From Bispira polyomma (taxonomy: Eukaryota): a stretch of DNA of 64,000 nt. Of the stretch, positions 26,201 through 62,651 are shown one piece after another (the first letter of the stretch is position 1; each line of letters opens with the position of its first letter). A model generated the notes under the pieces. It was not told the origin of the DNA and searched no databases. It saw only the letters and a program-made list of their open reading frames with translations. The position numbers were made by a program, and so were the translations under genes. Location: NCBI GenBank assembly GCA_965649765.1, contig OZ287757.1, positions 47,306,001 through 47,370,000 on the forward strand, in the 5' to 3' direction.

Positions 26201-27643
26201 GCAAGTCTACTGCACAACAAGGGCCAAAGATTTGAATTCACAATAGCAGAGTTAGCGTTGACTTAATAGTATTTCAGGTACTCTCCATCAAAAATAAAGA
26301 ATTTAGTTGGGTTTTATGTCACTTTCAACAGCATATGGATATCATGATGGCCAGATGCAGCAGTGAATAAAACCAGTGCTGAAGACACTGTAAACCACTG
26401 AACGTACAGCAAGTACCTGACAAATTTTTCCCACATGAAAGAATGAACAGTGATTGCGGCCCTTCCACCGAAATAGGGAAGCTGTATTCCATATTATTGC
26501 AGAAAGTTTTCACGTATTTTCTAAAGGTTTACCTGCCAGTATGTTCTTGTGAAAATGATAAGCTTAGAAAATATTTGTCATGTGATAGTATGTATTATTA
26601 TCACCTGTGATATTAGCTGGCTTTGATAAGAGTTTTGATAGACGTTTTAAAAAGAATGCAGACCAGGGTTAATTTGTTATATTTTCATCAACAATATATT
26701 TCTTAATATGTGTTTAATTCAATTTTTCCAACAAAACTCCATTTTTCCTGCTCGAACCCTATTGGTAAAAAAAAAATGAATATTTTATCATACAAAAGTC
26801 AGTTACTTGTATTCTAAAAGTAAAATTTTATCTACAAAGTAGGTAAGCATTTTTCGAGAATATGATATGCCACAATTTGGATTCAAGTAAGTGTAAAACC
26901 CAAAAAAGGATCTAAATCTAAGTAATCGCTCGTTAAAGAATACTACCTCTCTTCCACAATCATGAACATCCATCCCCACACACAAGTAATACACTTAATA
27001 GGTATAACCATTCCACTATTCCATTTATAACTTATAATTTTCACCAAAGCTTACATCATTTAAAGTGATATCCAATTTAAGCTACTTTACTGTGTCATTT
27101 TTTAAATCATAGAAATACTACTATTAAAGTAATTGATTGATGGATTGGCTTGTTTCTTATACGACATAAGCACTTATGCCATGCTATGTGTTTACTAGTA
27201 TTATATGGAAAGCATTTAAGGAAAGATTCCCCTAACCAACAGCCTTAACTTCTTCAAATGATAAAAAACGATGTTTTATGTAATTATATGCCTATAAACT
27301 ACCTTCTAAACACACTTAAATCTAAAAAGATCTAAATTTCTTTTTTTTTTCTTTTTTTTTTCTTTTTTAAGGCATGGTAATTAATATTTTTAGGCTTGTA
27401 ACTTACACTGTGTCTTAAATTAAGAGGGACGCTCCTTATATTGTTAGGGGTAATATTGATTTAACAACTCACTGTCTTCTACTACTGCAGATAATCTTAT
27501 ATAAGTTAGACTTCTGCCTAGTTATGCACATATTTTCAGAAGGGGACTTTGCCAATCGCCTGTTAAGAGTCTGCTGAGGAACAGTTTAACTGAATCTGCT
27601 GAGGAGAAGTGTAACTGAATCTGCTGAGGAGAAGAGAAGAACC

Positions 27644-27958
27644 ATGCATCAGATGCTATTACTACTCTTGTTTCTTCCCGCTGCTGTGGCCCTTGGTAGG
27701 CCAGCGCCCCTTGGTAGCCCAGAGCCCTTTGGTAGCCCAGCACCCTTTGGTAGCACAGCACCCCGTGGTAGCCCAGAGCCCTTTGGTAACCCAGCGCCCT
27801 TTGGTAGCACAGCGCCCCGTGGTAGCCCAGAGCCCTTTGGTAGCCCAGTGCCCTTTGGTAGCACAGCGCCGCGTGGTAGCCCACCGACCCTTGGTAGCAC
27901 AGCCACGTGCAACACAGAACAGGACAGCTACTCTGTGACCGTGATACAAAATGCTACA
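27644..27958 (+). CDS. Secreted repeat/Cys-rich protein, copy 2, exon 1
   Basis: MHQMLLLLLFLPAAVA plus 12 hexapeptide units; donor ACA|gttaaat. Confidence 0.8.
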
Positions 27959-28946
27959 GTTAAATCTGTTTTAATATGAATTCTAGTTATCTTGTAGTTA
28001 ATGTCTTTTGAAGTACCAAACTTTTAAACCAGGGGTGGTATTCTCGGCAAAAGTGACAATTCATTAATTACTTCCATGTCAAGTATTTGTCTTCATTTTT
28101 TTTTTGGCTTAATGAGACCCACGTGTAATATTCTCGATGAAATGTTTATTATTACTTATGGTGTAGAATAAAAACTTGCTAAGAATTCAAGTGAGAAAAC
28201 TAACATGCTCCGTTAAATGGTACTATATTCATTTTAGCACAAAAAGTTAGAGCTGAGGAAAATGGACTGTAATAAGTATATTTAACAAGTAAAAAGAAAA
28301 GTGTTGATTCTAAATGAAACAAAAAAGCAAGTGGAGTTAATTTCTCTTTTCATGAGAACAGCACTTTACTTACTAAAAGCCTGGTTACACCTACACGTGC
28401 TGGAGCTACATGTGTGTGACGTTTTGAACTGTCTTGAAACGTAGTAAAAGGTAATGCAAAAGTGAGGATCCCTGCCACGTTCGTTCTGTGATGTTGCTTA
28501 AACGTCACCATTTAGTCCAATGCCATGATTACTTCAAACTGTTTGAAATAATCGTGGTAGAGCTCTCCATTTCTTGAGGACATCTCCACTCATCTGTATA
28601 AGTAGCATAACATAGCAGTAAGAAGCAGTAAGTTACAGCAGGTAGTAGTAGGTAGTATCACATCTGTATTCGTCGTGGAACGTTTCACCAAATAACAGAA
28701 CGCAACCAAACGCAGCAGTAAGTAGCAGTACAGTAGCTCTACGTAGTAGTAGGCAATGATATCCTACCAGTAATGTGTTCGATTTATGCCCCCGCTCCGT
28801 GTGTATAAGTACCAACATCATCATTGGACAGGTAATATTTACACTAGAGTCTTTTGTTAGTCGTGATATATTTGACCCTCAAAATATCACAGAAAAATTA
28901 TAAAGCTTAATGTACATTGAATGGTCTGGAAATCTCACAAGCATGC

Positions 28947-29728
28947 TAAAACATCAAGACTTTATTGCTATTAAAGTACAAATATCAGGACTTTATTGCT
29001 ATTAAAGTACAAATAACAGGACTTTATTGCTATTAAATTACAACATCAGGACTTTATTGCTATTATAAGTACAAACATCAGAACTTTATTGCTATTGTAA
29101 GTACAAACATTAGGACTTTATTACTATTAAAGTACAAACATCAGGACTTTATTACTATTAAAGTACAAACATCAGGACTTTATTGCTATTAATGTACAAA
29201 CATCAGGACTTTATTGCTATTAAAGTACAAATATCAGAACTTTATTGCTATTAAAGTACAAACATCAGGACTTTATTGCTATCATAAGTACAAACATCAG
29301 GACTTTATTACTATTAAAGTACAAACATCAGGACTTTATTGCTCTTAAAATACAAACATCAGGACTTTATTGCTATTATAAGTACAAACATCAGGACTTT
29401 ATTGCTATAAAAATAGAAATATCAGCACTTTATTGCTATTATAAGAACAAACATCAGGACTTTATTGCTATTAAAGTACAAACATCAGGACTTTATTGCT
29501 ATTAAAGTACAAACATCAGGACTTCATTGCTATTAAAGTACCAACATCAAGGCTTTATTGCTATTAAAGTACAAACATCCGGACTTTATTGCTATTAAAG
29601 TACAAACATCAGGACTTTATTGCTATTAAAGTACAAACATCAGGACTTTATTGCTATTAAAGTATAAATTTCAGGACTTTATTGCTATTAAAGTACAAAC
29701 ATCAGGACAAATATCGGGACATAATTGC
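28947..29728 (+). repeat. 31-bp minisatellite, ~25 units
   Basis: Direct tandem repeats. Confidence 0.95.
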
Positions 29729-30058
29729 CATTATCTTACACCAGCTGTCTAATACTTGGGTATGACATGAGCCCTTTGTGACAGTCTCATAGATAGTTTG
29801 TACAAAACATGACACACAGGAGAGGTGTATGGCCAACAAGGATTGGTTGAAAGCAAATGACCCTGCAAAACTGAGGGGTGTCAGCTTGATAGTATCAGGT
29901 GCTATCTGATATTGCCGCCATGTTGGAAGTAATATGTAAGGCTTTCATGGATTGGTTGGAAGCAATCGACCTAGCTAAACTGATAGGTATCAGATTAATA
30001 TTTATCACACTGCTCACCTGTGTCTTTTTACAAATCTTGTTTTCTCTGGTATTTTCAG

Positions 30059-30489: not shown

Positions 30490-31153
30490 CATTGTTATAC
30501 ATTAAGTATTACTACATTGTTACACATCAAGTATTAATAAATTCAATTATTAATACATTGCTACACATCAAGTATTATATATAGCTACACATCTAGTATT
30601 AATATATTGCTATACATCAATCATTAATATATTGCCACACATCAAGTATTAATATACTGCTACACATCAAGTATTAATACATAGCTACACATCAATTAAT
30701 AATACATAGCTACACATCAAGTATTAATACATAGCTATACATCAAGTATTAATACATAGCTACACATCAAGTATTAATACATAGCTATACATCAAGTATT
30801 AATACACAGCTACACATCAATTAATAATACATAGCTACACATCAAGTATTAATACATAGCTATACATCAAGTATTAATACATAGCTACACATCAAGTATT
30901 AATACATAGCTATACATCAAGTATTAATACACAGCTACACATCAAGTATTAATACATAGCTACACATCAAGCATTAATACATAGCTATACATCAAGTATT
31001 AATACACAGCTACACATCAAGTATTAATACATAGCTACACATCAAGTATTAATACATAGCTATACATCAAGTATTAATACATAGCTACACATCAAGTATT
31101 AATACATAGCTATACATCAAGTATTAATACATTGCTACACAACAAGTATTAAT
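30490..31153 (+). repeat. 25-bp minisatellite, ~26 units
   Basis: Direct tandem repeats; tac/tat variants alternate in a 50-bp higher-order pattern. Confidence 0.95.
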
Positions 31154-31537: not shown

Positions 31538-31941
31538 TAAGGCCCTACACTTTTTGTGGAGTACCTTGTGTGGAGTACATTGTCCAAGGCTACAATCTCC
31601 AACCCAATTTAATATTACTCGTTCACCTTCGAACACAGCGGATAGAATCAACCCTTCCCTTGCTTTTCTAGGATCCACAGTAGTGTACTTGCTAACCGAA
31701 TTGAGAAAACGAGAAAAACACTAAATAGAATCCCACTACAGTTAAACCCACTACAGTTAAATCCCAAAAGTTGTTGTTTAATGTTCATACAATCTTATAT
31801 GTCTGTGTGGAACTATTCTGGAAGTCACTGCATAACTTGTATTTGGTGGTACTTATACTTAACGTTAAACCCTTACAATATAACACTATAGACTGATAGT
31901 CAGGAGAACTACTTCTAAAGTCCACTGTGTCTAGTATATTT

Positions 31942-32152
31942 TGATAGTCACTGCATTAAGCATGGCTTCTCAGTCGCAGAAATTTCATATATTACAGTAA
32001 TGCTGATAAACAATTTGTTTACTGAGACAGCAGCCTATTAGAACACTTACTGATAGCCAATAGCAGGCTGGTTCACTCAGGCATTTTGCCGCCCTTTCTA
32101 TTGTGAGGGCATTGCAAAACTAGAAGTTGAATAAGCAACAACTAAAATTTTG
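31942..32152 (+). repeat. Ngaro split direct repeat A1 (211 bp)
   Basis: Identical by eye to 37691-37901. Confidence 0.95.
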
Positions 32153-32340
32153 AAAGAAACGACGCCATCTTGTCAATAGAAAAAAGTTGGCAAGATTCAG
32201 AAGAGTTTTACAAGTTTTAGTGTTTTATTAATTTACTTATACATCTTATACCATTTTATTTTATACACAAGTGTTTATCATATACAAGGAGGGTGTTAAA
32301 CGGATTATTACATTGTTGTGAACAAATCCTATGACTCATC

Positions 32341-33792
32341 ATGGGCAGAGGTAAGAAGCGTCAACCTGCTACAAGCATAGCTTCGTGTTCTCGATGTGAC
32401 ATCTCACATACCAGACCTGTTGGGAGCAGATGTAAACGTCAATTAGTGTCGGACGAAATAGGAGGCTTGCAGAGCGATTCCGTAACTACACAAGACCACG
32501 AAACTTCGATAAGCATGAGCGAATCTGGCACAGCCGTAAGTAGTGATTCTTTCTACCGGGACGCGTTTCATGAACAACAGTCCATGATGAATAACATTTT
32601 AAAAACAGTGTCAAAATTACAAGAAGATATGTCCGCCCTGAAAGAAAATAAAACCCGCTTATGTCCCATGAGTCCTGACAAAACTACAGCTGAATCAGAT
32701 CAACAAGGTTCAGGTCCACTGATCCGACAGAAGTTTAATAGGCAGTGCAGAAGTAGCACACAAGGGCGTACACAGCCTCAGGGTACACTTCGCAGAGATT
32801 CTCGTCTACCGATTCCAGATTTCTACAATGACGTACCTCCACATTCACATAACCGTGCACAGAATACACCTCAGTCAGCAGCATTACTACCCACACCAAG
32901 CATCGTGTCTCAGGGGCAGAACCTATTCAATACGACGTCTCAGAGACTGCTTCCAAGTGAACAAGGTCCACAACAAGCGGGTTGCACAGGTCTTCAACCA
33001 CATCACAACACGACTGCACACAATGCCTTCTCACAACAAGCGTCAAACCACACACAAAGAGCAATGCAAGATTCGATCATCCCATCTACAGACGTACTTC
33101 GGCAGTCCTCGTTAATACAAAACGAAGTAAGCAGACGATTGGCCCAGTATGACAGTTGGTCAAGCAGCGACTACATTCAGGGTAAGTCAACTAAGAAAAA
33201 GTCGGGAAGGTACAACATTTCAGAAGTTTGCATATCCGACCCAATAGTACGTTGGCCGAATGAGGGAAATTTAGCGGGGGTCTCAAAGAAACGTATCGCA
33301 TACGATGAACTCACAGTAGCACAATTTGGCGCGGGTCAAATTCAGAACATTTTACAAGTTCAAAACCAGGTCATAGCGACAGCTATGCTAAAACAGCTAG
33401 GTGATTCATTAAGAGACAGTGCCAACCTATCCTGGCAAGTCGCGCGGGGCGCATACGCCTGTAGTATGCACGATGTGGAAGAGGGAAGGCTGTGTTGGAC
33501 GGATGAACACAAATGGGCGATGAATCGCCTGTCCTACTCCCAAACGTTGATTTCAAATCCATCCGGAGCATCAAATTCCACTAACGCGTCTGGTAACAAA
33601 CCCGAGATTCCATGTCGACATTTTCAAAAGAACACTTGTCAGCACAAAGGTGACCACGAGGGCCACTCAACCGTCTTCAAGCACATCTGTGCTAATTGTT
33701 TCCGCATTTCCAGACGACAGAATCCCCATCCGGAAACCAAGTGTTTCAAAATACATGGGAAACCAGAGGTCAACACGACGCACACTCAATAG
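32341..33792 (+). CDS. gag: Ngaro ORF1, Gag-like (483 aa)
   Basis: N-terminal CxxCxxxH..C motif; C-terminal Cys/His fingers (CRHFQKNTC...H, HICANC...H...C). Confidence 0.9.
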   Translation: MGRGKKRQPATSIASCSRCDISHTRPVGSRCKRQLVSDEIGGLQSDSVTTQDHETSISMSESGTAVSSDSFYRDAFHEQQSMMNNILKTVSKLQEDMSALKENKTRLCPMSPDKTTAESDQQGSGPLIRQKFNRQCRSSTQGRTQPQGTLRRDSRLPIPDFYNDVPPHSHNRAQNTPQSAALLPTPSIVSQGQNLFNTTSQRLLPSEQGPQQAGCTGLQPHHNTTAHNAFSQQASNHTQRAMQDSIIPSTDVLRQSSLIQNEVSRRLAQYDSWSSSDYIQGKSTKKKSGRYNISEVCISDPIVRWPNEGNLAGVSKKRIAYDELTVAQFGAGQIQNILQVQNQVIATAMLKQLGDSLRDSANLSWQVARGAYACSMHDVEEGRLCWTDEHKWAMNRLSYSQTLISNPSGASNSTNASGNKPEIPCRHFQKNTCQHKGDHEGHSTVFKHICANCFRISRRQNPHPETKCFKIHGKPEVNTTHTQ

Positions 33793-33954
33793 GACGGGAA
33801 ACCGCATACAGACACCACTGCTGCACGCATAACTCAAACATCTCGGAGAGGCACAGAATGGGACACAAGTATCCAGCATGATGACTTTGAGCATAAGTAT
33901 AAAATTGAAGGGAAAGACGTTGAGATATATTTTAATGAGTTAGGTAACAGTTCT

Positions 33955-36492
33955 ATGGACACTACTAGCTGTGTAATAACCAAGAGTAAAACAAACGTTT
34001 TGCAAATTAACACAGTACAACAGACAGAATCTATATTTGATGATCATATGTTAAATCTAAAAGACGTTAATTTAGTCATCAGTAATGTAAATCAACAAGT
34101 GACTAGTGGTAGTGATATGTGCAGTGACAAGACTCGATCTGACTCTATGAACAATTGTAGTAGCAACTCCATGTCAAAAGTAGATAGGAGTAGTGTTGAT
34201 GTATATTTTAGTTCATATATATCCAGTTTGGATGGATATCACTTATGTTATATTGTATGTAATGATAAGAGGCACATTTCAGGAGTGTACACCTGGACTA
34301 ATGTGTGCGGTCGAGTGTCTCTACATAAATCTGACTGCACTGTGGCTAATATATGGCCAGTAACATTTTACACAACAATGACAATAGATGTCATTGAGAC
34401 AAAAGCCAAACACTTCACAAATGCAACACGTTTAAAACAACACACAAATAAACAGATTCGACAGAGTATCACACACACACGAACAAAGACAAATAAGGCT
34501 CAATATTATTTGGACATTATTGATGAAATATCTAGAGCAGTTCACCAAGGTACACAAACACAAACAGAAGACAACATTGACACTCGACTAGTCAAACGAA
34601 AAAGTATAAAATCAGTAGACACAAATGAACATGTTGCCAATTTTGATGACATTGAGATACTACAGAATTTGATTATAAATGACCACATTGATGCATTAGG
34701 TGACACTAATACAAAAAAAGAAAACAAATTGAAGATAAAAGTGATAATGGACAACAGGACTTATGGTTTTATCACACACGAAGAAGAAACTTTCAATTTT
34801 GTTGGACCAGAGAGACAGACAGTTGACATTGACTCATACGATAAGTTAATTAAGGTGGCTGAGATGATAAAACAAACAAACTTACCAAATTACAGAATGG
34901 CAAGAATACCAATTAAGAGTAATCTTAATGTGAGTAATTGGAAGAAATATCTAACCAATTACCCAAACCAGAAATTACTTGATTACATACAATTCGGATT
35001 TCCCATTTCGCTGTATGAGCGAGACAGACTGAATGTAAAAGATATCAAAAATCATTTCTCAGCCTTCACCTTCCCAAATGTGGTAGACAAGTATTTCACC
35101 ACAGAAATAGAAAGAGGCACAATAATAGGACCAATAAATCAAACTCTTCACAAGGACATACATTGTTCTCCCCTTATGTCTAGGCCTAAAGACAATAATC
35201 AGCGCAGATTAATTCTTAACTTATCTCATCCTTTAGGCAGATCAGTAAATGATTGTACCGTAAAGGACAAATACGACAACACCGACTTTGACTTAAAATT
35301 ACCGACTATTGACCAAATTACCACTTACATTAAATTTTTAGGACCTAAGGCCACCTTAGCGAAATTGGACATAGCCCACGCATTTCGAAACTTACGTGTT
35401 GACCCTCTTGATTGTTTAAAACTAGGTTATGTTTGGGAAAATCAACACTTTATTGATCTAAGTCTTACTTTCGGACTCACCCATGGCACGTCTATCTTTA
35501 TGATGGCATCAGACGCAATTACTTACATCATGACAGAAAAAGGTTTTAAAGTATTTAACTACATCGATGATTACATTATTGTAGAAAAAGAAGATAAGGC
35601 CACCTTAGCCTATGAAACCTTACAAAGGATTGTAACTGAACTTGGTCTACCCATCAATCCCAAGAAATTAGTCCCCCCTAGTAAAAAGGTCACATGTATG
35701 GGCATAACAATTGATATTGCACACGCAACTCTCAGTATTGACGAAGAAAAACTCAATTCAATATATGACATTTGTGTCACATTCAGCTCATTAAGGAAAG
35801 TACCTAGGAATAAGTATCAATCATTATTGGGTAAACTCCTGTATATACAGAGGTGTGTGAAACATTCACGCATATTTATGAATCGGATGCTTACAGTACT
35901 ACGAAATTCCAAACATAGCAAATGGATAAACTTAACGGACGAGTTTCATAAGGACCTGAATTGGTTCTTACGTTTCTTAAAAGAATTCAATGGTACTACA
36001 AAGTATAGCATTGAAAACCAACACTATGACATACTATTTCATGGTGACGCGTGTCTCTCCGGCATAGGTGGCGTGTGGGATAAGAAAGTTTTTCAAACAG
36101 CGTTACCAATGTTTTTAACAGAATCACTATCTATAGTACACTTTGAAATGATCTGCGTACTATTAGCATTGAAATTATGGGGTAAACATTGGCAGAACAA
36201 ACGAATTAAAATCAAATCAGATAACATGGCAGTGGTTTCTGTAGTGCGGTCGCTAAAAACTAAAGATAAATATTTAAGCTTATGTTTGAGAAACATTTGG
36301 CTACTCTGTGCAAAATACAATATAGACCTCTTAATAGAACACATACCAGGTAAAGACAACGTTATTGCAGACTGTTTATCTCGTTGGCATGAATTAGGAC
36401 ATTATGGACAAAAAATGAAGGACTTGATTAAGGAAAATTTTGAAATGTACAATATACCACTAGACATGTTCCTAATGGACACTTTAATTTGA
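33955..36492 (+). CDS. pol: Ngaro ORF2, reverse transcriptase and RNase H (845 aa from the first ATG)
   Basis: RRLILNLS, KLDIAHAFR, LTFG, YIDD; RNase H motifs DAC, FEM, SDNMAVV and HIPGKDNVIADCLSR. Confidence 0.95.
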   Translation: MDTTSCVITKSKTNVLQINTVQQTESIFDDHMLNLKDVNLVISNVNQQVTSGSDMCSDKTRSDSMNNCSSNSMSKVDRSSVDVYFSSYISSLDGYHLCYIVCNDKRHISGVYTWTNVCGRVSLHKSDCTVANIWPVTFYTTMTIDVIETKAKHFTNATRLKQHTNKQIRQSITHTRTKTNKAQYYLDIIDEISRAVHQGTQTQTEDNIDTRLVKRKSIKSVDTNEHVANFDDIEILQNLIINDHIDALGDTNTKKENKLKIKVIMDNRTYGFITHEEETFNFVGPERQTVDIDSYDKLIKVAEMIKQTNLPNYRMARIPIKSNLNVSNWKKYLTNYPNQKLLDYIQFGFPISLYERDRLNVKDIKNHFSAFTFPNVVDKYFTTEIERGTIIGPINQTLHKDIHCSPLMSRPKDNNQRRLILNLSHPLGRSVNDCTVKDKYDNTDFDLKLPTIDQITTYIKFLGPKATLAKLDIAHAFRNLRVDPLDCLKLGYVWENQHFIDLSLTFGLTHGTSIFMMASDAITYIMTEKGFKVFNYIDDYIIVEKEDKATLAYETLQRIVTELGLPINPKKLVPPSKKVTCMGITIDIAHATLSIDEEKLNSIYDICVTFSSLRKVPRNKYQSLLGKLLYIQRCVKHSRIFMNRMLTVLRNSKHSKWINLTDEFHKDLNWFLRFLKEFNGTTKYSIENQHYDILFHGDACLSGIGGVWDKKVFQTALPMFLTESLSIVHFEMICVLLALKLWGKHWQNKRIKIKSDNMAVVSVVRSLKTKDKYLSLCLRNIWLLCAKYNIDLLIEHIPGKDNVIADCLSRWHELGHYGQKMKDLIKENFEMYNIPLDMFLMDTLI

Positions 36493-36500
36493 TTTCAGGA

Positions 36501-37478
36501 ATGACAGAAACAGCTAGACCTCTCTTGACAAGTGCAGTCCAGAGAATTAGACAGTGTCACAGACCCAGAACTACTAAACAATATAACAGCCAGTTTAGAT
36601 TATTCCTGGCCTTCACAGTATACTACCAGCTGAATGAAACATTCAGTTTCAATACCATTATTACATTCATGGAATATCTAGTACAATCTGGAGTTTCACC
36701 CAAAGTGATAAACAACTACTTGTCAGCGATACGTCATACTTGCAAATTTCTTAACATTACTGACAAAGGTCTTTATGATCAAAGATTACCACTGTTTCAA
36801 AGATCAGTCGAATTATCCTCAAGATTTTCTCCCAAGGTCAAAGGTGTCTTCGACCTTCACCAATTGATAGAAATTTCAAAAACATGTGAAATTCTTCATT
36901 GCCCTGAATTATTCAGAACAGCGTTTTTGGTTGCATATTTCGGATTCCTGCGAATCTCTAATTTGACTACAACTTCCGGATACCCATTTGACCCAACTAG
37001 ACACATTACCAGGGATGACTTGGTATTTGCTCACCCTGGCATTCATTTGATTCTAAAGTGGTCGAAGACGAATCAGACCAGATCACATACAGACATAATT
37101 TAACTTCCCGCTCTTAGCAACCCTTGGCTTTGTCCACTCACTGCTGTCAAGAAATTATTTCAAAAATTTCCAATGTCAGGGAAAGCACCATTATTAGCTG
37201 ATCCTTCAGACAAAGATAAATGCCTTTCAGATACAAAGCTCAGGATTGCTTTAAAACGCATACTGACACACATAAACATACCTCATGAAGGACACTCATT
37301 TCATTGTTTCAGACGATCAGGCGCATCACTAGCCTTCAATTCAAATATACAACTGCAACATATCCAGAAACATGGGTGTTGGAAATCAGATGCAGTTTGG
37401 TCCTACCTACAATCCACTTCTCATGCCGCCTCCATCATCCCTTCCACCTTTGCTTCCATCATTTCTTCAAAATTTTAA
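36501..37478 (+). pseudogene. Ngaro ORF3, tyrosine recombinase with one in-frame stop (TAA 37101-37103)
   Basis: FGFLRISN (R), KWSKTNQ (K), HCFRRSGA (HxxR), HGCWKSDAVWSY (W, Y); the two ORF-track pieces are in the same frame. Confidence 0.9.
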
Positions 37479-37486
37479 TTTGGCCT

Positions 37487-37690
37487 TGGCATTTTAAAAA
37501 TTTTAAATTAGAAATTTTATGTACAGATGTATATACAAATTAATGAATTATGAATAAATTTATCCCAAACTGCATCCGATTCTCATCTACCAAACAGACC
37601 CACACCATCATTATGACCTTCACTATTAGATAAAGGTCAAACTTACCTCTCTGACCCTTCATGGTCACATTCAAACATTTCATGAGACTG
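37487..37690 (+). repeat. Ngaro split direct repeat B1 (204 bp)
   Basis: Matches 37966-38153 apart from a 16-bp indel. Confidence 0.95.
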
Positions 37691-37901
37691 TGATAGTCAC
37701 TGCATTAAGCATGGCTTCTCAGTCGCAGAAATTTCATATATTACAGTAATGCTGATAAACAATTTGTTTACTGAGACAGCAGCCTATTAGAACACTTACT
37801 GATAGCCAATAGCAGGCTGGTTCACTCAGGCATTTTGCCGCCCTTTCTATTGTGAGGGCATTGCAAAACTAGAAGTTGAATAAGCAACAACTAAAATTTT
37901 G
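37691..37901 (+). repeat. Ngaro split direct repeat A2
   Basis: Matches A1. Confidence 0.95.
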
Positions 37902-37965
37902 CCCAAACCACCCTCCCCCTTTTTAGATTGTACTAATGTATGTATCATATGGGTTATTTTACGTA

Positions 37966-38153
37966 TGGCATTTTAAAAATTTTAAATTAGAAATTTTATG
38001 TACAGATGTATATACAAATTAATGAATTATGAATAAATTTATCCCAAACTGCATCCGATTCTCATCTACCAAACAGACCCACACCATCATTATGACCTTC
38101 ACTATTAGATAAAGGTCAAACTTACCTCTCCATTCAAACATTTCATGAGACTG
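37966..38153 (+). repeat. Ngaro split direct repeat B2 (188 bp)
   Basis: Matches B1. Confidence 0.95.
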
Positions 38154-40353: not shown

Positions 40354-41734
40354 GTAAGACTTAATTTTTTACCCCATAATGTTTGCCTCTCAATGTACAA
40401 GGTACAAATCCTGTTCATTACCTCATGTGGCAAAGTCTTATCTAGTACTAACCATAGGTAGGTTGTTTACAATGCTTCACCCTTAAAATCTGGCTATCGT
40501 AATATGGCCCACATGCTGTTGAAAGCAATGCTTAAACCAAACTATCAATAAGTACACAAATTATGAGTAAATAATGTTGGCATGTTTGGTATGATATAAC
40601 AACTTGACGAGTGACAATTAGAAACAAAAAAGAACAAGACAAAGATAGAATGATCATGCATTGTGGATATATGTGTCTAAACACTTTACCTGTGGTATGT
40701 TGATGAGATTCTAAAGGATTTGTGTAAAAGTGTGTTCCTACATTTCAAATCCCAGTTGGACAAATATTGGCTCCAAATTACTGTGTCTCTTACCGTTTCC
40801 AGGATATTCAAAAATTTTAAGATGGTTGCCTAAATTTTGGACATTTCAATATTGACAGACATATTCAGCAAAACAATCCCTCACGGATATAGCTTGGAAT
40901 TCTAGGAATAAGCAAAGTACTTCCAACAAAAACGTTTAAATATACCTTATTCACTCATCTGCTGGGAAAATAATAAACTTTAGCGCATCAAATAAAACAA
41001 TGGGCTGGAGTTTAAACTTTTTACAATATTTTAGACTGAAAAGTATGATTTCCGCTCAGCAGTGGATAAAGCAAATAGAACCTTTACTGATAGACAATAA
41101 TAAATGCTTACTCAATTTAATATATGTAAAAATAAGTATTAAACTTTGGTTAATGACTGAAGTAAAGCCTAATGAAATATACCAAGAATTGGTTTGCAGG
41201 TCATCAAAACCACCACTATCACTGTGTAGATGGATTAACATACATCTGTTCTTTGAAAATTATTTGTGGTCTATATCTTTCACGTTACCATTTTAAACTA
41301 TACAGGAAACATACTTTCAAAGTTTCCAATATAAGGTTATACAGAAAATAATCAACTTCAGACATAATCTTTTCAAAAGGAAAATAACAGATAGTCCGAA
41401 TTGTCATTATTGCTCACTAGTTGATACAATAGAAAATCACCTTTATTACTTCCAAGTTTACAAATATTTCTGGAAAAAAGTCACTATCTTTATATGTGTA
41501 AATTATGTATGTGTACATTGCAAAATATTGAAATTGTGTACATATTGTTGTAGTACAAAAGTATAATAATCACATATTCGTGAGAAAATTTAAGAGTTTT
41601 TATGTCATGTGTATAATGTGTATCTATATATGAAAACAATAAAAGAACAGGTAAATGTTTAAACATAACTTAAAACAAATAACTAAAAAATATCATTTAA
41701 GAATATGGCCCCTCACTTGTTTTGTATTGTGCAG

Positions 41735-41870
41735 ATGTATTCTTTTGGATGTAGACGATAGGGATTATACATCAGATAGTTTGCAATTTACTAAAATATC
41801 TCTCCGTGAAAATTGTGACATTCAGAAGAACTACTTTCAGCCTGGCTACCGCTTGTTCAGTGAATACTAA
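41735..41870 (+). CDS. Secreted repeat/Cys-rich protein, copy 2, exon 5 (intact)
   Basis: (I)CILLDVDDRDYTSDSLQFTKISLRENCDIQKNYFQPGYRLFSEY*; gives a 230-aa protein with 12 Cys. Confidence 0.65.
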
Positions 41871-42919
41871 AATTTAGCTGATAAAATTTGTATAAGTATG
41901 CTGTATGTATGGCAAAATAATGGTTGTGGTAAGAAATGCTGTGTAATGTGTCACTGTGACCGAGTTGTGAAACTGAACAACTAGAACCCACCCATTTTTG
42001 TACCCTGAGTGTAACAATTGTTATCCAGAGAACAACTTTAATATGTTTTTTAAAAAAGCAAAAACCTATAACCCCAAATTGACAAGTTTAACCAGTGCTG
42101 TACATTTTTGAATTATTCATGTGCTCAATTTCAGTTGTGTCGGTGCAAGCATTCAGGCTGCTCTGCCCCCAGGTGGAGAACCCTAAGCCAACATGACTGA
42201 TGTCTATTTAAACACTTGTCTAGTACAAGAATATTATTTGTGTTTTTAAGTATGGTTTTAACCTGAGCTAACCAAAGAAAAAATATTTTATATATACTCA
42301 CTAAAGAATTTGACTCATATGGTATTTGATTTTATTATATTTGTTTCAAAATTTTAAAAGTGAAATTTATTATAATCCTTTAACAAATAAACCATCTTAC
42401 TATATTGTAGTTTTCTTTTGAATGGGAAACTTTATACATGCCCTTAAAAAGGAATTTCCACAATGGTAGATACTTGTCCACAGATTTGAAAAATGTCAAA
42501 TAACTTATCTGATGAACATTTTTGTGGGATTTGTTTGTGGTATTCACATATATGGCCATCTAAAAGTGACTAGGCTCTAAACTATTTGTGCTGTGGCTAT
42601 TGGAGTTAATCAAAGACATCCATTTTAAGACATTAAAATCAGTTTAAAATCAATGTTTAAGCATAACTACATAATAGTAATTATAGTTTGAATGGTCAAA
42701 CAAATTACATATTAGAAGTCATATTTCAAGTAAATGTTTTAAAATTGTTGTTCGACCCTTTTCCAAGCAGATATAATGAAAACATGTATATTTTTAGCAA
42801 ACCAATGGCAATAACCTTCATTAAATATACCTTGGAATAGTAATATTTGAGATTTTAGATAATTTTTACTTCCTGGTCAAAAGTCTGCTCCTAAACAAAC
42901 TAATGGTGCAATATACTTT

Positions 42920-45520
42920 TTTCATTCAAATGCAATCCATTGTCAACTTTTCAGCACACTTTCTATTTAAGATAGCAAGTATTGATCATTATATTTGCTC
43001 TTTAGATACTGTTGGTACTCAAAAAAATTTAAGTATGCATTGTATCTTACAAAATTAAGAATTTAAAATTTTGTTGTTATATAAACAACATTTATAGGAA
43101 TATTAGGTATATCATATTCCCAAGTTCTAAAGATCCATGTACTAGGACTACAAGTAAACTTGATACTTACTGAATGACTCAACCAAGATTTGATATTACT
43201 CAAAAACAGCACACTTTTTTGGCACAAGACGAACAAGTGAAGATTTAGTTCTTCATGCCCATTATAGAGACAACACATAGCTGTTTGAGAATGTTTTATT
43301 TTATGCAAAAATGTATTTGTAAATAATCTGTATATTTATTTTATACTGAAACCTACTCAGTGAGTTATCCTTGATAAAATGAAAACATATTTTATGTATA
43401 ATTTTTCAGGTCCAAAGATATAATCAGATCATCTTTCCACTTATGGTGAGATCTGTTGTCACAGATACTATCAGTTCTCATTATGTCATAACAATCTCTT
43501 GTTCCTGTTCAAGATTTGCAGAGTAGCGGGATATGGTTGTAATAAATAGGCCTTTGTCATATCTTTGGTGAAAGATCGTTAGTTTGAATGTACTTTTTTA
43601 AAGACGAACGCAACCTGTGGTATGTACTAAAGTCCACATGAGTAATGTAGTATAGAGTAATACTCTCCTTAGTCACAAAGTCAAACTCATTTGTGATAAG
43701 ATCAAGTGAGGAAATGACTTCTTTGTTATATAACTTAGATATCAAACAGTTCAATTTTAAAATAGCAGAGAGGTCCAAACGTTCTCTTATAGTCATTACT
43801 TTTTCTGGCCAAGTTTGATATAACACTGCAGACTATCAGAACATCCTTCCAAAACTTGTTGCTTATTATACGAGCTCTTAGTAAGAACCACTCAGACCCC
43901 AAGTAAAGTATTTTATTGACTGATCCAATACCACTGTGTGTTAACTGTATCCAGGGGGAGTCTTTGTTACAATATAAATAACGGATTCATGATACTCAAA
44001 GCCCTTTGATCAAAAAGTTGACATTTATGATTTAAAACCTTCTTTCAAATACCCTTTTGACAATTGCTTTCGAATGACTTTATCTGGTTTGTCATCCCAG
44101 ATAAATTTGTAAAATATAGTATTTATTTGTTAAATGAACTTAGTATCAGGGTTGGTATAGAAATAAAAAGATGATTTAACTTGAGTAGCAATGAAGTTTT
44201 TATCGCTCTTAATTTACCAATAGGTATTAACTAGTATATTTTCCAGTATTTTGACGACTGTTTTATTTTGCTTTCTGCTTTGGGATGACTAAGATCATTT
44301 TGCTCAGATCAACTGAAAATGTTATTCCTAACAAATTAAATTGTTTCCCACTTCTTGTCATTTGAAAATCTTTTCATCCCTATTCATTTAGTTTTGTTTT
44401 GTCAGTGTTAACCTTTACTCCAAACAATGATCTATATATACGTATTTAATGCTACAAACAGAGAACCAATTGTACCATTCAGTATTATATTGGTGTCATC
44501 AGCAAATTGTGTTATCTTAGATACAGTGTCGCTTATAGTTATTTCTATAAAAAAAAGATTTTTGACTATAATAATCAATATTTGTTGACATATAATAAAT
44601 AAATAAGGTGCAATTGGGTCGACTTGTCGACAGCGCTTCTCAATGTTATGAAGTCTAACAGAACACCACAACAGCTGCCTTAATGTTTTTAATTGAACAT
44701 TTGTATCCAGCTTAGCATACTGTCACCAAAACCAAGAAAGTTCACAACAGAGGATAAAAATTTCCAGAAAACAGAATCAAAAGCTTTTTCAAAGTCTATA
44801 AGTCCTATTATTTTGCTCTGTATAATACATTAAATTGAATATTAAGTGATCTTCCAAAGGTATTTTATAAAATTCTATCAGCGATGGCACTAGAACCATT
44901 TTTGTCAATAACAGAGAAACAGGTCACCAATTCTTTAAGAATTGTACTGGTTTATTACCATCTGGTAAACAGTTGATAATCCATTACAGTAATGATGTTG
45001 ACATTTCGCCACATTTGTAAGCATGGTTTAAGGCTCTAAGTACAAAATATTTTTGTTTACTCCAAAATACTTTAAAAAATTCAGATAGGAATCCATCAAT
45101 GCCAGGACATTTCCCACTTTATATTGCTTTTAGTGCAATACTCAATTCACTGGTCTTTGAAGGGCCTTCATGTTCTGCTAGTTCATTTAGTGACAGTTTT
45201 GTAACATTATTTATGAATGAAGTGTCATTAAAATTTGGTTCAGAGAGAAATTTGTCATTATTTTAAAATAGCCTCTAAATTTTTTTTTATTTCTTCAAGA
45301 ATTTCTATTTAATCTGTCAAATTTTTACCATTCTGTTTTACGATAAGCTTTATGGTTTTTCGAGATAATTGGTGTTCCAAAGAACAGATTTGGATTTGGA
45401 AGGTTTCTCATCCACTTTTAGCCATTATACTCTATATCTGATGTAGATACCTTTTAATTTTTCTTCTCTTAATTCTTGTAATTTCTTCTTTTTATCTTCA
45501 AATTGTGTACAATAAAATTT
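42920..45520 (-). mobile_element. Degenerate Tx1/L1-like LINE ORF2 (copy 2)
   Basis: Duplicate of 13340-15940. Confidence 0.85.
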
Positions 45521-45569
45521 CAAGGTAAAGCTTATCATTTTCTGTTAAAAATAGGTCACATCAGTAAAC

Positions 45570-46260
45570 TCATTAAAGCTTATTAGAAGGTCCACTAAAT
45601 CAAGATGAATTAGGTGTTGCCCTAAAACAGATGAAGAATAACAAAACTCCTGGAATGGATGGTTTTCCCTCAGAATTTGTTTAAATGTTTTGGAAAGATT
45701 TAAAACATTGTATACTTAAAGCTCTAAATTGCAGTTTTAAGAAAGGGACAATGCTCTTCGGCCCTTCGACAATGCACTATTACTTGCCTTCCAAAGAAAG
45801 ATAAAAATCGAGACATGATAAAAAACTGGCGTCCTTTATCAATGCTGTCTGTAGTTTATAAACTAGCATCTGCTACAATAGCAAACAGACTGAAACCATA
45901 TCTTTGCTACTTAAAAAACAAAACTCAAAATGGCTTTGTACCTGGTAGATATATAGGTCAAAGTTCTAGATTAGTCTAGAAAATTTTGTATTACACAGAG
46001 GTATCTAAAACTCTGGGAATGTTAGTTCTGATAGTTCGATTCTTTATCTTGGTCTTTCATACATAAAATGTTACAGTACCTTGGCTTTAGGGATTCATTT
46101 ATTAGTTGGATCAAATTATTTAATAAAAACATTAAGACAACTGTGATACAATGTGGATTGCTATCAGAATTTTTATATGTTGAGAGAGGCTGTAGACAGA
46201 GTGATCCTATTTCCCCTTATCTTTTTATTATAGCTACCCAAATACTGACAGTTTTATGAT
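45570..46260 (+). mobile_element. Tx1/L1-like LINE RT fragment (copy 2)
   Basis: Duplicate of 15990-16680. Confidence 0.85.
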
Positions 46261-55700: not shown

Positions 55701-57226
55701 GCTGAGTTGTAAAATAATTTTGATGGACTTTTTGAGGAAAAAATCTGTTTAAGATTTTCTGCTCTGCAAACTACCAGCCTTCAGCAAGTCTACTGCACAA
55801 CAAGGGCCAAAGATTTGAATTCACAATAGCAGAGTTAGCGTTGACTTAATAGTATTTCAGGTACTCTCCATCAAAAATAAAGAATTTAGTTGGGTTTTAT
55901 GTCACTTTCAACAGCATATGGATATCATGATGGCCAGATGCAGCAGTGAATAAAACCAGTGCTGAAGACACTGTAAACCACTGAACGTACAGCAAGTACC
56001 TGACAAATTTTTCCCACATGAAAGAATGAACAGTGATTGCGGCCCTTCCACCGAAATAGGGAAGCTGTATTCCATATTATTGCAGAAAGTTTTCACGTAT
56101 TTTCTAAAGGTTTACCTGCCAGTATGTTCTTGTGAAAATGATAAGCTTAGAAAATATTTGTCATGTGATAGTATGTATTATTATCACCTGTGATATTAGC
56201 TGGCTTTGATAAGAGTTTTGATAGACGTTTTAAAAAGAATGCAGACCAGGGTTAATTTGTTATATTTTCATCAACAATATATTTCTTAATATGTGTTTAA
56301 TTCAATTTTTCCAACAAAACTCCATTTTTCCTGCTCGAACCCTATTGGTAAAAAAAAAATGAATATTTTATCATACAAAAGTCAGTTACTTGTATTCTAA
56401 AAGTAAAATTTTATCTACAAAGTAGGTAAGCATTTTTCGAGAATATGATATGCCACAATTTGGATTCAAGTAAGTGTAAAACCCAAAAAAGGATCTAAAT
56501 CTAAGTAATCGCTCGTTAAAGAATATTACCTCTCTTCCACAATCATGAACATCCATCCCCACACACAAGTAATACACTTAATAGGTATAACCATTCCACT
56601 ATTCCATTTATAACTTATAATTTTCACCAAAGCTTACATCATTTAAAGTGATATCCAATTTAAGCTACTTTACTGTGTCATTTTTTAAATCATAGAAATA
56701 CTACTATTAAAGTAATTGATTGATGGATTGGCTTGTTTCTTATACGACATAAGCACTTATGCCATGCTATGTGTTTACTAGTATTATATGGAAAGCATTT
56801 AAGGAAAGATTCCCCTAACCAACAGCCTTAACTTCTTCAAATGATAAAAAACGATGTTTTATGTAATTATATGCCTATAAACTACCTTCTAAACACACTT
56901 AAATCTAAAAAGATCTAAATTTCTTTTTTTTTTCTTTTTTTTTTCTTTTTTAAGGCATGGTAATTAATATTTTTAGGCTTGTAACTTACACTGTGTCTTA
57001 AATTAAGAGGGACGCTCCTTATATTGTTAGGGGTAATATTGATTTAACAACTCACTGTCTTCTACTACTGCAGATAATCTTATATAAGTTAGACTTCTGC
57101 CTAGTTATGCACATATTTTCAGAAGGGGACTTTGCCAATCGCCTGTTAAGAGTCTGCTGAGGAACAGTTTAACTGAATCTGCTGAGGAGAAGTGTAACTG
57201 AATCTGCTGAGGAGAAGAGAAGAACC

Positions 57227-57541
57227 ATGCATCAGATGCTATTACTACTCTTGTTTCTTCCCGCTGCTGTGGCCCTTGGTAGGCCAGCGCCCCTTGGTAG
57301 CCCAGAGCCCTTTGGTAGCCCAGCACCCTTTGGTAGCACAGCACCCCGTGGTAGCCCAGAGCCCTTTGGTAACCCAGCGCCCTTTGGTAGCACAGCGCCC
57401 CGTGGTAGCCCAGAGCCCTTTGGTAGCCCAGTGCCCTTTGGTAGCACAGCGCCGCGTGGTAGCCCACCGACCCTTGGTAGCACAGCCACGTGCAACACAG
57501 AACAGGACAGCTACTCTGTGACCGTGATACAAAATGCTACA
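57227..57541 (+). CDS. Secreted repeat/Cys-rich protein, copy 3, exon 1
   Basis: Same translation as copy 2; donor ACA|gttaagt. Confidence 0.8.
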
Positions 57542-58556
57542 GTTAAGTCTGTTTTAATATGAATTCTAGTTATCTTGTAGTTAATGTCTTTTGAAGTACC
57601 AAACTTTTAAACCAGGGGTGGTATTCTCGGCAAAAGTGACAATTCATTAATTACTTCCATGTCAAGTATTTGTCTTCATTTTTTTTTTTTGGCTTAATGA
57701 GACCCACGTGTAATATTCTCGATGAAATGTTTATTATTACTTATGGTGTAGAATAAAAACTTGCTTAGAATTCAAGTGAGAAAACTAACATGCTCCGTTA
57801 AATGGTACTATATTCATTTTAGCACAAAAAGTTAGAGCTGAGGAAAATGGACTGTAATAAGTATATTTAACCAGTAAAAAGAAAAGTGTTGATTCTAAAT
57901 GAAACAAAAAAGCAAGTGGAGTTAATTTCTCTTTTCATGAGAACAGCACTTTACTTACTAAAAGCCTGGTTACACCTACACGTGCTGGAGCTACATGTGT
58001 GTGACGTTTTGAACTGTCTTGAAACGTAGTAAAAGGTAATGCAAAAGTGAGGATCCCTGCCACGTTCGTTCTGTGATGTTGCTTAAACGTCTCCATTTAG
58101 TCCAATGCCATGATTACTTCAAACTGTTTGAAATAATCGTGAGAGAGCTCTCCATTTCTTGAGGACATCTCCACTCATCTGTATAAGTAGCATAACATAG
58201 CAGTAAGAAGCAGTAAGTTACAGCAGGTAGTAGTAGGTAGTATCACATCTGTATTCGTCGTGGAACGTTTCACCAAATAACAGAACGCAACCAAACGCAG
58301 CAGTAAGTAGCAGTACAGTAGCTCTACGTAGTAGTAGGCAATGATATCCTACCAGTAATGTGTTCGATTTATGCCCCCGCTCCGTGTGTATAAGTACCAA
58401 CATCATCATTGGACAGGTAATATTTACACTATAGTAGATGAACTGAATGCTGAAGAGTCTTTTGTTAATCGTGATATATTTGACCCTCAAAATATCACAG
58501 AAAAATTATAAAGCATTAATGTACATTGAATGGTCTGGAAATCTCACAAGCATGCT

Positions 58557-59708
58557 AAAACATCAAGACTTTATTGCTATTAAAGTACAAATATCAGGAC
58601 TTTATTGCTATTAAAGTACAAATAACAGGACTTTATTGCTATTAAATTACAACATCAGGACTTTATTGCTATTATAAGTACAAACATCAGAACTTTATTG
58701 CTATTGTAAGTACAAACATTAGGACTTTATTACTATTAAAGTACAAACATCAGGACTTTATTACTATTAAAGTACAAACATCAGGACTTTATTGCTATTA
58801 ATGTACAAACATCAGGACTTTATTGCTATTAAAGTACAAATATCAGAACTTTATTGCTATTAAAGTACAAACATCAGGACTTTATTGCTATTAAAGTACA
58901 AATATCAGAACTTTATTGCTATTAAAGTACAAACATCAGGACTTTATTGCTATAAAAGTAGAAATATCAGGACTTTATTGCTATTAAAGTACAAATATCA
59001 GAACTTTATTGCTATTAAAGTACAAACATCAGGACTTTATTGCTATCATAAGTACAAACATCAGGACTTTATTACTATTAAAGTACAAACATCAGGACTT
59101 TATTGCTCTTAAAATACAAACATCAGGACTTTATTGCTATTATAAGTACAAACATCAGGACTTTATTGCTATAAAAATAGAAATATCAGGACTTTATTGC
59201 TATTATAAGAACAAACATCAGGACTTTATTGCTATTAAAGTACAAACATCAGGACTTTATTGCTATTAAAGTACAAACATCAGGACTTCATTGCTATTAA
59301 AGTACCAACATCAAGGCTTTATTGCTATTAAAGTACAAACATCCGGACTTTATTGCTATTAAAGTACAAACATCAGGACTTTATTGCTATTAAAGTACAA
59401 ACATCAGGACTTTATTGCTATTAAAGTACAAACATCAGGACTTCATTGCTATTAAAGTACCAACATCAAGGCTTTATTGCTATTAAAGTACAAACATCCG
59501 GACTTTATTGCTATTAAAGTACAAACATCAGGACTTTATTGCTATTAAAGTACAAACATCAGGACTTTATTGCTATTAAAGTATAAATTTCAGGACTTTA
59601 TTGCTATTAAAGTACAAACATCAGGACTTTATTGCTATTAAAGTATAAATTTCAGGACTTTATTGCTATTAAAGTACAAACATCAGGACAAATATCGGGA
59701 CATAATTG
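58557..59708 (+). repeat. 31-bp minisatellite, ~37 units
   Basis: Direct tandem repeats, longer than in copy 2. Confidence 0.95.
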
Positions 59709-61134: not shown

Positions 61135-62651
61135 CTTGTCTGACAAGTTATCCGACCTTGTGTCTCAGTCAACTTCATAACTGATCGAGTGTTTTTGGTC
61201 TAACATTGGCCAAAATAGTAAGTTATTGGCACCCAAATAATCACCATATAGTCTAGAGTAATGTTTTACACAGGCCACACTAGGCTCAAAAGGACAAACT
61301 TGTGTGGAAATCGATTTGATGTGATTTAGGTATAACATCGCTTTCAACATATTTTATAGGTCATATCACAACATGCAATATATACTAGTTGGTCAATGTT
61401 GTACACTCTAAGCCAGTGACCATCGGCAAGTAAATGCCAAATTTTCCACTTACAGCCCTGGCCGAGATTCAAACTGGGACCTCAGAGGTTGGAGGTCTGT
61501 GTGTTAGCACTGCGCCACTAAGGCCCTACACTTTTTGTGGAGTACCTTGTGTGGAGTACATTGTCCAAGGCTACAATCTCCAACCCAATTTAATATTACT
61601 CGTTCACCTTCGAACACAGCGGATAGAATCAACCCTTCCCTTGCTTTTCTAGGATCCACAGTAGTGTACTTGCTAACCGAATTGAGAAAACGAGAAAAAC
61701 ACTAAATAGAATCCCACTACAGTTAAACCCACTACAGTTAAATCCCAAAAGTTGTTGTTTAATGTTCATACAATCTTATATGTCTGTGTGGAACTATTCT
61801 GGAAGTCACTGCATAACTTGTATTTGGTGGTACTTATACTTAACGTTAAACCCTTACAATATAACACTATAGACTGATAGTCAGGAGAACTACTTCTAAA
61901 GTCCACTGTGTCTAGTATATTTCAATTATATTTTCATGGTTCTGTTCCGAATGAAGTGTGCACCCTAAGGTAAAATTTAACCCTTTTAATCCTAAGAGAA
62001 AAATATTGCCAGGAACTGAAGGGAATTTTTAGGTAATCGGCTACACATAGCTGTACCACCGACTACTTCCAGCATTCAATAACAGTCTTGCATATGGGAA
62101 AATAATATTTTGGAGGTCTTGACTGCTGGTCGGCAGACATACGGGTCAAAAGGGTTAAACATAACAAAATTACATCGGTTGGTTCACTGGTACAAATATA
62201 GATTCCAGCATAGTAGTGTTTGCGTCAACCAATATTAATTTTCACAAGAAGCGTTGGCTGCTTCTCAGTCATCGTAGTGGACAACACTAAATCGGAGGTA
62301 AAATTAGAGGTTTTAAAATGTGTACAGCAGTCCAATACAATGTTGTAGTGTTTGTATAATTTGTTTCATTTCTACTCTTGATAAAGCAAATGGCTGAAGC
62401 TTTAAACTGTAGCAGAAAATATATATTCTGTGAGAAGAAACTCTATTCGCTAAAACCAAAATTATTTTTTTGTAAAAAAAAATTTCTCAAACAAAAATCA
62501 AACCTCTTAACTCTCAAATCTAAGTATAATGCTACATTTACCTTTTGAATATACATTACATTATCATAATCTAAAAAATCCCTTTAAAAGTACACACCTT
62601 GATTTATGTTGGTATTCTTTAGTATTTACTGTCATTTTCTTTATATTTCAG

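Follow-up and report, generated by a model that had tools for sequence, protein, structure and literature searches.

A very young retrotransposon of Ngaro-type structure and its empty insertion site in a tandem array of Bispira polyomma

How does a retrotransposon that encodes a tyrosine recombinase (YR) become joined to its target, and how many bases must the two have in common? For the DIRS order integration is still mostly a model, and a 64-kb stretch of Bispira polyomma DNA (the window) raises the question with a filled and an empty copy of one insertion site. The 6,212-bp element at 31942-38153 on the plus strand is, with high probability, a recent insertion from a new Ngaro-type family, complete in structure but with a dead recombinase. 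The empty twin of its insertion site lies at 61922/61923, inside a near-identical block, where the flanks of the element, missing from this copy, rejoin exactly.

The filled junctions fall at 31941/31942 and 38153/38154, and their reading proposed from the letters alone (ctagtatattt on the left, caattata on the right, the two adjacent at 61922/61923) agrees with them exactly. The flanks match the empty copy without a difference over 786 bases leftwards and 346 bases rightwards, so that the accompanying claim of no duplication or loss also holds: 0 target bases were duplicated and 0 were lost. Neither repeat pair runs beyond the element (extension 0 past its ends on both sides), and its boundaries therefore have a single placement. 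A third, older copy of the site (8594..8595), separated from the empty block by 639 differences over 9,686 aligned sites, is also empty; the ancestral state was thus empty, and the paralog was rightly taken as a natural control, since it presents a valid pre-insertion sequence. The target 30-mer is 80% A+T, and 63 of 698 host 30-mers are equally rich; no fold was found at the target site (z +1.2). Searches with blastn and tblastn for further copies or solo repeats within the 64-kb window returned only a 66-bp A+T-rich match of 76%, and Rfam gave 0 matches in the window.

The element is laid out as A1-gag-RT/RNase H-YR-B1-A2-B2, all features lying on the plus strand, and in a self-comparison its internal repeats of at least 40 bp are all direct. 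A1 (31942-32152) and A2 (37691-37901), both of 211 bp, had been described as equal and are so at 211/211 bases. A2 abuts B1 (204 bp, 37487-37690, with AATAAA at 37553) with neither gap nor overlap, and a unique spacer of 64 bp (37902-37965) parts it from B2 (188 bp, 37966-38153, with AATAAA at 38032). B1 and B2, delimited by sequence comparison, are equal at 188/188 aligned bases and differ by one 16-bp gap, which leaves the internal repeats A and B identical at 399/399 aligned bases. We read the inequality of B1 and B2 as a lesion of this copy. What B2 lacks, from base to base, is a hairpin with a 5-bp stem and a 6-nt loop that is present in B1 (37652-37667); its counterpart in B2 would stand between 38130 and 38131, about 90 nt 3' of the B2 AATAAA (38032). 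The gap has one possible placement, is not flanked by a repeat and takes out exactly one hairpin. Since the loss removes a single complete hairpin from a stretch that the replication model recopies from B1, it would most likely represent a skip of the polymerase in the round of reverse transcription from which this copy arose. A second hairpin in B, with a 7-bp stem and a 12-nt loop (37614-37639 and 38093-38118), has a stem motif in common with the deleted one.

The gag ORF (32341-33792) encodes 483 aa up to its TAG stop and carries a zinc-binding Cys/His motif at the C-terminus. At E<=0.001 it matched 1,149 relatives, and eight Cys/His positions are kept in 100-113 of the best 150. The pol ORF (33793-36492), recognized by Pfam matches and 113 relatives, comprises 899 codons from stop to stop, its first ATG being at 33955, with an N-terminal extension of ~330 aa followed by reverse transcriptase (RT; YIDD at 35560; RVT_1, E 8e-12) and RNase H (RVT_3, E 1e-5) domains. 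Its relatives are mostly of similar length and at best 50% identical. Internal stops are absent from both frames, and gag and pol are in this sense intact, as had been said. A block of the pol N-terminus (34165-34830) is moderately conserved in relatives and predicted to form a small sheet and two helices; the extension as a whole gave 0 family or fold matches, its model being of low confidence (mean pLDDT 60), which has no bearing on novelty. No methyltransferase was matched in any of the 29 pol alignment members scanned. Pol ends 35 aa past the RNase H end motif, and 89 of the 90 relatives that have this motif (90 of 113) stop within 51 aa of it; the missing methyltransferase is common to a broad set of relatives, down to ~27% identity.

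The gag and pol genes share one frame and are parted only by the gag TAG (33790-33795). The idea that this TAG is a lesion of a gag-pol fusion was rejected. Gag ends 15 aa past its last Cys, and of 100 relatives in which this Cys is present 94 stop no more than 26 aa beyond it. The best 150 are all 574 aa or shorter; a weak search for a long fused gag-pol form among relatives found none, and 3' of the TAG there is no readthrough structure (z +0.7). Pol may be expressed by readthrough, reinitiation or splicing.

The YR ORF (36501-37478, 325 codons) lies in an open frame that begins at 36444 and overlaps the end of pol by 49 nt in the -1 frame. Its Pfam matches are weak, and it was recognized by residues that it has in common with relatives, of which 347 were found (best 62% identical among the matches listed): R151, K189, H268, R271, H291/W294 and Y302 recur in 107-120 of the 120 listed. 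The frame is broken by a TAA at codon 201 (37101-37103), in a column that 120/120 listed relatives (of 347) read through. As this stop precedes the H-x-x-R motif and the catalytic Tyr, the copy appears recombinase-dead and is predicted to be unable to integrate itself. The description of the element as full-length accordingly holds for its structure and fails for its function, the recombinase being cut by the stop. The sequence-only reading mentioned neither this stop nor the B2 gap, nor did it mention the third empty copy or the single frame of gag and pol. The divergence of the surrounding blocks predicts ~1.7 substitutions within the element and gives a new stop a chance of 0.05-0.065; it is therefore more likely that the stop arrived with the copy and, barring a consensus error at this position, the recombinase was probably supplied in trans by another copy. 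The stop and the 16-bp gap could also be consensus errors or changes that followed the insertion. No hydrolase ORF was found, the longest frame 3' of YR being 54 aa.

Some features of possible relevance to YR expression were also recorded. Donor-like sites of the form G/GTRAG occur on the plus strand of the element only at 32350/32351 and 33181/33182, both in gag and both in phase 1, and either would join YR in frame at an acceptor-like site at 36498/36499, just past the pol stop; YAG sites with a branch motif and a tract number 3 of 215. In the linkers of gag relatives G is followed by K or E in 52 of 83 cases, compared with 15.6 in shuffles, an excess that a conserved donor would explain, as would a mere protein motif. 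Close to the end of pol stands a canonical slippery heptamer, which was discarded because it runs straight into a stop.

On these grounds the element is classified as a Ngaro-type retrotransposon, a class set by structure and not by a tree with named references; of the relatives listed, a single one bore a name, 'hypothetical protein'. It combines split repeats, gag, RT/RNase H and YR on one strand, no methyltransferase and a YR that overlaps pol in -1, the last two features making it Ngaro-type by structure, and the identity suggested by the sequence-only reading is thereby upheld. The defining features of Ngaro-like elements are given in PMC9210276 and PMC4157794, the -1 overlap of YR with pol is attributed to Poulter and Butler 2015 as quoted in PMC13003380, and the lack of a target site duplication is stated for the DIRS order in PMC8969392.

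The insertion site belongs to a tandem array with a unit of ~23-24 kb. As delimited by sequence comparison, near-identical block 1 (13470-43049) carries the element, and block 2 (43050-64000), which is empty, runs off the window. Ahead of 13470 there are ~20 substitutions per 500 bp and beyond it almost none, divergence dropping sharply from ~4-5% to ~0.05% at 13470/43050. Comparison of the two blocks over 18,626 sites gives 10 differences (7/14,531, 2/2,017 and 1/2,078 by segment; 95% interval 0.026-0.099%), a count that leaves out 28000-29900, a tract of minisatellite and indels (bins 28000-29999 hold 12 substitutions and 5 gaps). As had been stated, the insertion is very young, and its age is bounded by the divergence of the blocks, whatever the order of duplication and insertion. 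The earlier statement that the paralog dates the insertion is correct to this extent, but the further claim that insertion followed the last duplication is not proven. In an alternative order, to which we give a limited though appreciable chance, the insertion came before the duplication, and unequal crossing-over between filled and empty homologs set both alleles in tandem. The sharp switch of divergence at 13470/43050 is what a single crossover between older units would yield, and derived changes are found in both blocks (of 17, eight in the filled block, seven in the empty one and two unresolved), as is a 31-bp minisatellite of unequal copy number, 24.4 in the filled block (28949-29708) and 36.4 in the empty one (58558-59689). 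The same picture would result, however, from duplication between sister chromatids followed by insertion.

Several other features of the array were noted. A cluster of differences between 27964-28906 and 57547-58515, where the empty block is mostly like the old copy, is a possible conversion tract. A 25-bp array and a 285-bp dimer (30543-31153; 22037-22601) are further repeats. Decayed fragments of non-LTR retrotransposons (RVT_1, zf-RVT) lie on both strands at 11369-16700 and 40940-46260, and the switch to near-identity (~13470) falls inside them. A signal-peptide-like exon recurs at 4664-5107, 27590-27979 and ~57170-57560, with an 18/54-bp coding repeat present in 5 copies in the old unit and 4 in the young units; it is probably part of the gene of the array, and its end presumably resembles the start of a cadherin domain (Pfam gave no match). 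Such flanks, with LINE fragments and a signal-peptide exon, are typical of an intron-rich eukaryote.

The published split-repeat model would account for the structure of the element as follows. The transcript would start inside A1 and end at the poly(A) signal in B2, and reverse transcriptase would copy it, jump from A1 to A2 and continue into B1; this jump would rebuild both ends and join B to A. The tyrosine recombinase would then cut the B/A junction and join it to the A+T-rich target, strand exchange tolerating mismatch as in Tn916-type recombinases, and replication or repair would settle the mismatched overlap. If the cuts were staggered, an insertion without gain or loss would result from either daughter strand. 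The observation, made previously, that the joined ends of the element equal the internal B1/A2 junction is true and fits a circle, but it also follows from the split-repeat layout; we infer a circular intermediate from the layout together with the published model. In the one experimental study of a DIRS element, DIRS-1 cDNA in cells was found to be single-stranded and mostly linear, and PCR of the circle junction was without product (PMC7192593).

The B/A junction and the target have 0 bases in common on either side of the joint, and a check for shared bases or shifted registers yielded none. For an unrelated junction and target a match of 0 bases is expected, by computation, 56% of the time; zero shared bases are thus unsurprising under homology-free integration, and they exclude an obligate shared motif. 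If the joint is the work of a recombinase, mismatch must have been tolerated during the exchange, and recombinase-made integration with a mismatched overlap is the reading that we favour, from the evidence of one event and one element. A look-alike of the B/A junction, 13 bases at 31889-31902, 40 bp to the left of the site, is probably due to chance: depending on probe length, 6/314, 37/314 and 61/314 control windows score as well, and it recurs at 61870-61883 and ~8543-8555 and is thus older than the insertion.

Other tyrosine recombinases make different demands on their targets. DIRS1, which has RT and YR, a proposed circle junction and no target site duplication in common with the element described here, is reported to recombine through a 3-bp motif common to its ends and the target, compared with 0 bp here (PMC3266345). 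Its repeats are inverted, and it carries a methyltransferase and an internal complementary region, whereas our element has direct repeats and no methyltransferase. Crypton recombination uses 4-6 bp according to PMC3212892 and PMC13465315. The closest likeness, in the manner of working only, is to the integrases of Tn916 and Tn1549, which insert a circle at A+T-rich sites where hardly any homology exists; members of the Tn916 family melt a non-matching crossover region, yet need one matching base (PMC5871717). These are bacterial DNA elements, and they need 11-bp inverted arms as well as a matching T where ligation takes place, whereas our element has no matching base in either strand reading and only a 4-bp inverted match around the junction, so that the precedent is inexact. 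In the literature passages searched, we found no statement on junction homology or hairpins in Ngaro elements.

A different answer to the absence of homology would be that the recombinase works on single-stranded DNA that has folded, exchanging one pair of strands and leaving replication to complete the process, as with integron attC. An imperfect hairpin of 56 nt is predicted across the B/A junction (37677-37732, plus strand, the break being at 37690/37691), in which A positions +30 to +42 pair with the final 14 nt of B, the B side of the stem stops at the break and the base that opens A stays unpaired. It has a z-score of -3.7, equal stability being reached in 3/1,000 shuffles as DNA and 2/1,000 as RNA, and a core pair probability of >=0.97 in contexts of 60 to 854 nt. 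Both repeats are required for it (without B, A gives z -0.1 to -0.2, whether alone or together with its flank), and its 60-mer, picked after the fold had been seen, ranks first by energy but only sixth by z-score among 82 independent peaks of the element. A 60-mer centred on the break folds no better than shuffles (z 0.06). A search for DNA of relatives in bacterial and archaeal genomes, phages and plasmids found none. The fold is suggestive and may be a substrate of single-strand recombination, an RNA signal or chance. Use of a folded strand, although it would account for the absent homology and agrees with the single-stranded state of DIRS-1 cDNA (PMC7192593), seems to us unlikely: the window was chosen post hoc, the z-score rank is modest, the break-centred 60-mer does not fold, and equal folding as RNA may serve strand transfer, packaging or the choice of the 3' end. 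Integron attC and CTX-phage attP, again similar in the manner of working only, are recombined by a tyrosine recombinase on a hairpin with unpaired bases, the product being resolved by replication (PMC4792948 for the outline, the details of these folded substrates being general background), while our element has a predicted fold alone, in which neither binding boxes nor a conserved core triplet were identified. The broader proposition, that Ngaro recombinases in general would integrate single-stranded cDNA folded attC-like at the B/A junction, with no target homology and with resolution by replication, we regard as more doubtful still. If it were true, a eukaryotic retroelement would use integron-type chemistry, and the locus would be its base-exact record, including the skip of a polymerase over a neighbouring hairpin in a single-stranded intermediate.

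The two blocks could, in principle, be alleles of a single locus misassembled in tandem, the insertion then being heterozygous. A heterozygous 6-kb insertion is a common source of false duplication, and near-identity over >20 kb in a repeat array speaks for this explanation, which we nevertheless consider doubtful, because a real array exists (as evidenced by the older copy), the blocks meet at 43050 without a seam and the window contains no N. Even if the blocks were alleles, the empty site would still be a valid control.

Returning to the class of the element, its nearest counterparts are Ngaro-like elements such as Xenopus DIRS-53_XT and Cafeteria Ngaro types 1-4, with the same A1-ORFs-B1-A2-B2 order in ~6 kb, gag, RT/RNase H and YR, and no methyltransferase. 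YR extends over the end of pol in -1 in both (by the 49 nt given above in our element), although fungal Ngaro vary. The repeats of DIRS-53_XT measure 236 bp (A) and 152 bp (B), compared with 211 and 204/188 bp here. Our element differs in having no hydrolase ORF, a gag that abuts pol in frame instead of overlapping it, unequal B1 and B2 and a broken YR, and its best relatives are only 50% (pol) and 62% (YR) identical. PAT-like and VIPER-like elements have split direct repeats in the same order; PAT carries a methyltransferase, which is missing here, and VIPER is reported from kinetoplastids. Descent from the PAT lineage with subsequent loss of the methyltransferase has a precedent in Caenorhabditis briggsae, described by authors who warn that structure alone misleads (PMC4157794). 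For the present element we find such an origin very improbable, as the methyltransferase is absent throughout the broad set of pol relatives, and the phyla richest in gag look-alikes are Basidiomycota and Chordata, where Ngaro is reported (weak evidence, few members having an assigned phylum).

Tyrosine recombination is reversible in principle, and zero homology is also a product of end joining, which usually trims or fills. It is nonetheless least probable of all that the empty site arose by precise excision from one of two filled blocks, or that a linear cDNA entered at a break via host repair, given that both repeats end to the base, unlike in usual end joining, that the internal repeats are free of substitutions, and that loss products of Ngaro are reported as solo AB repeats and not as clean sites (PMC8547959).

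The superfamily is well known, and this one defective copy is otherwise ordinary. Its importance lies in the one clean pair of filled and empty sites, from which it would follow that this split-repeat family needs no match of shared bases, provided that a recombinase made the joint. The very low divergence of the blocks implies that the family was recently active in this genome, and this recent activity makes the question of the recombination substrate testable.
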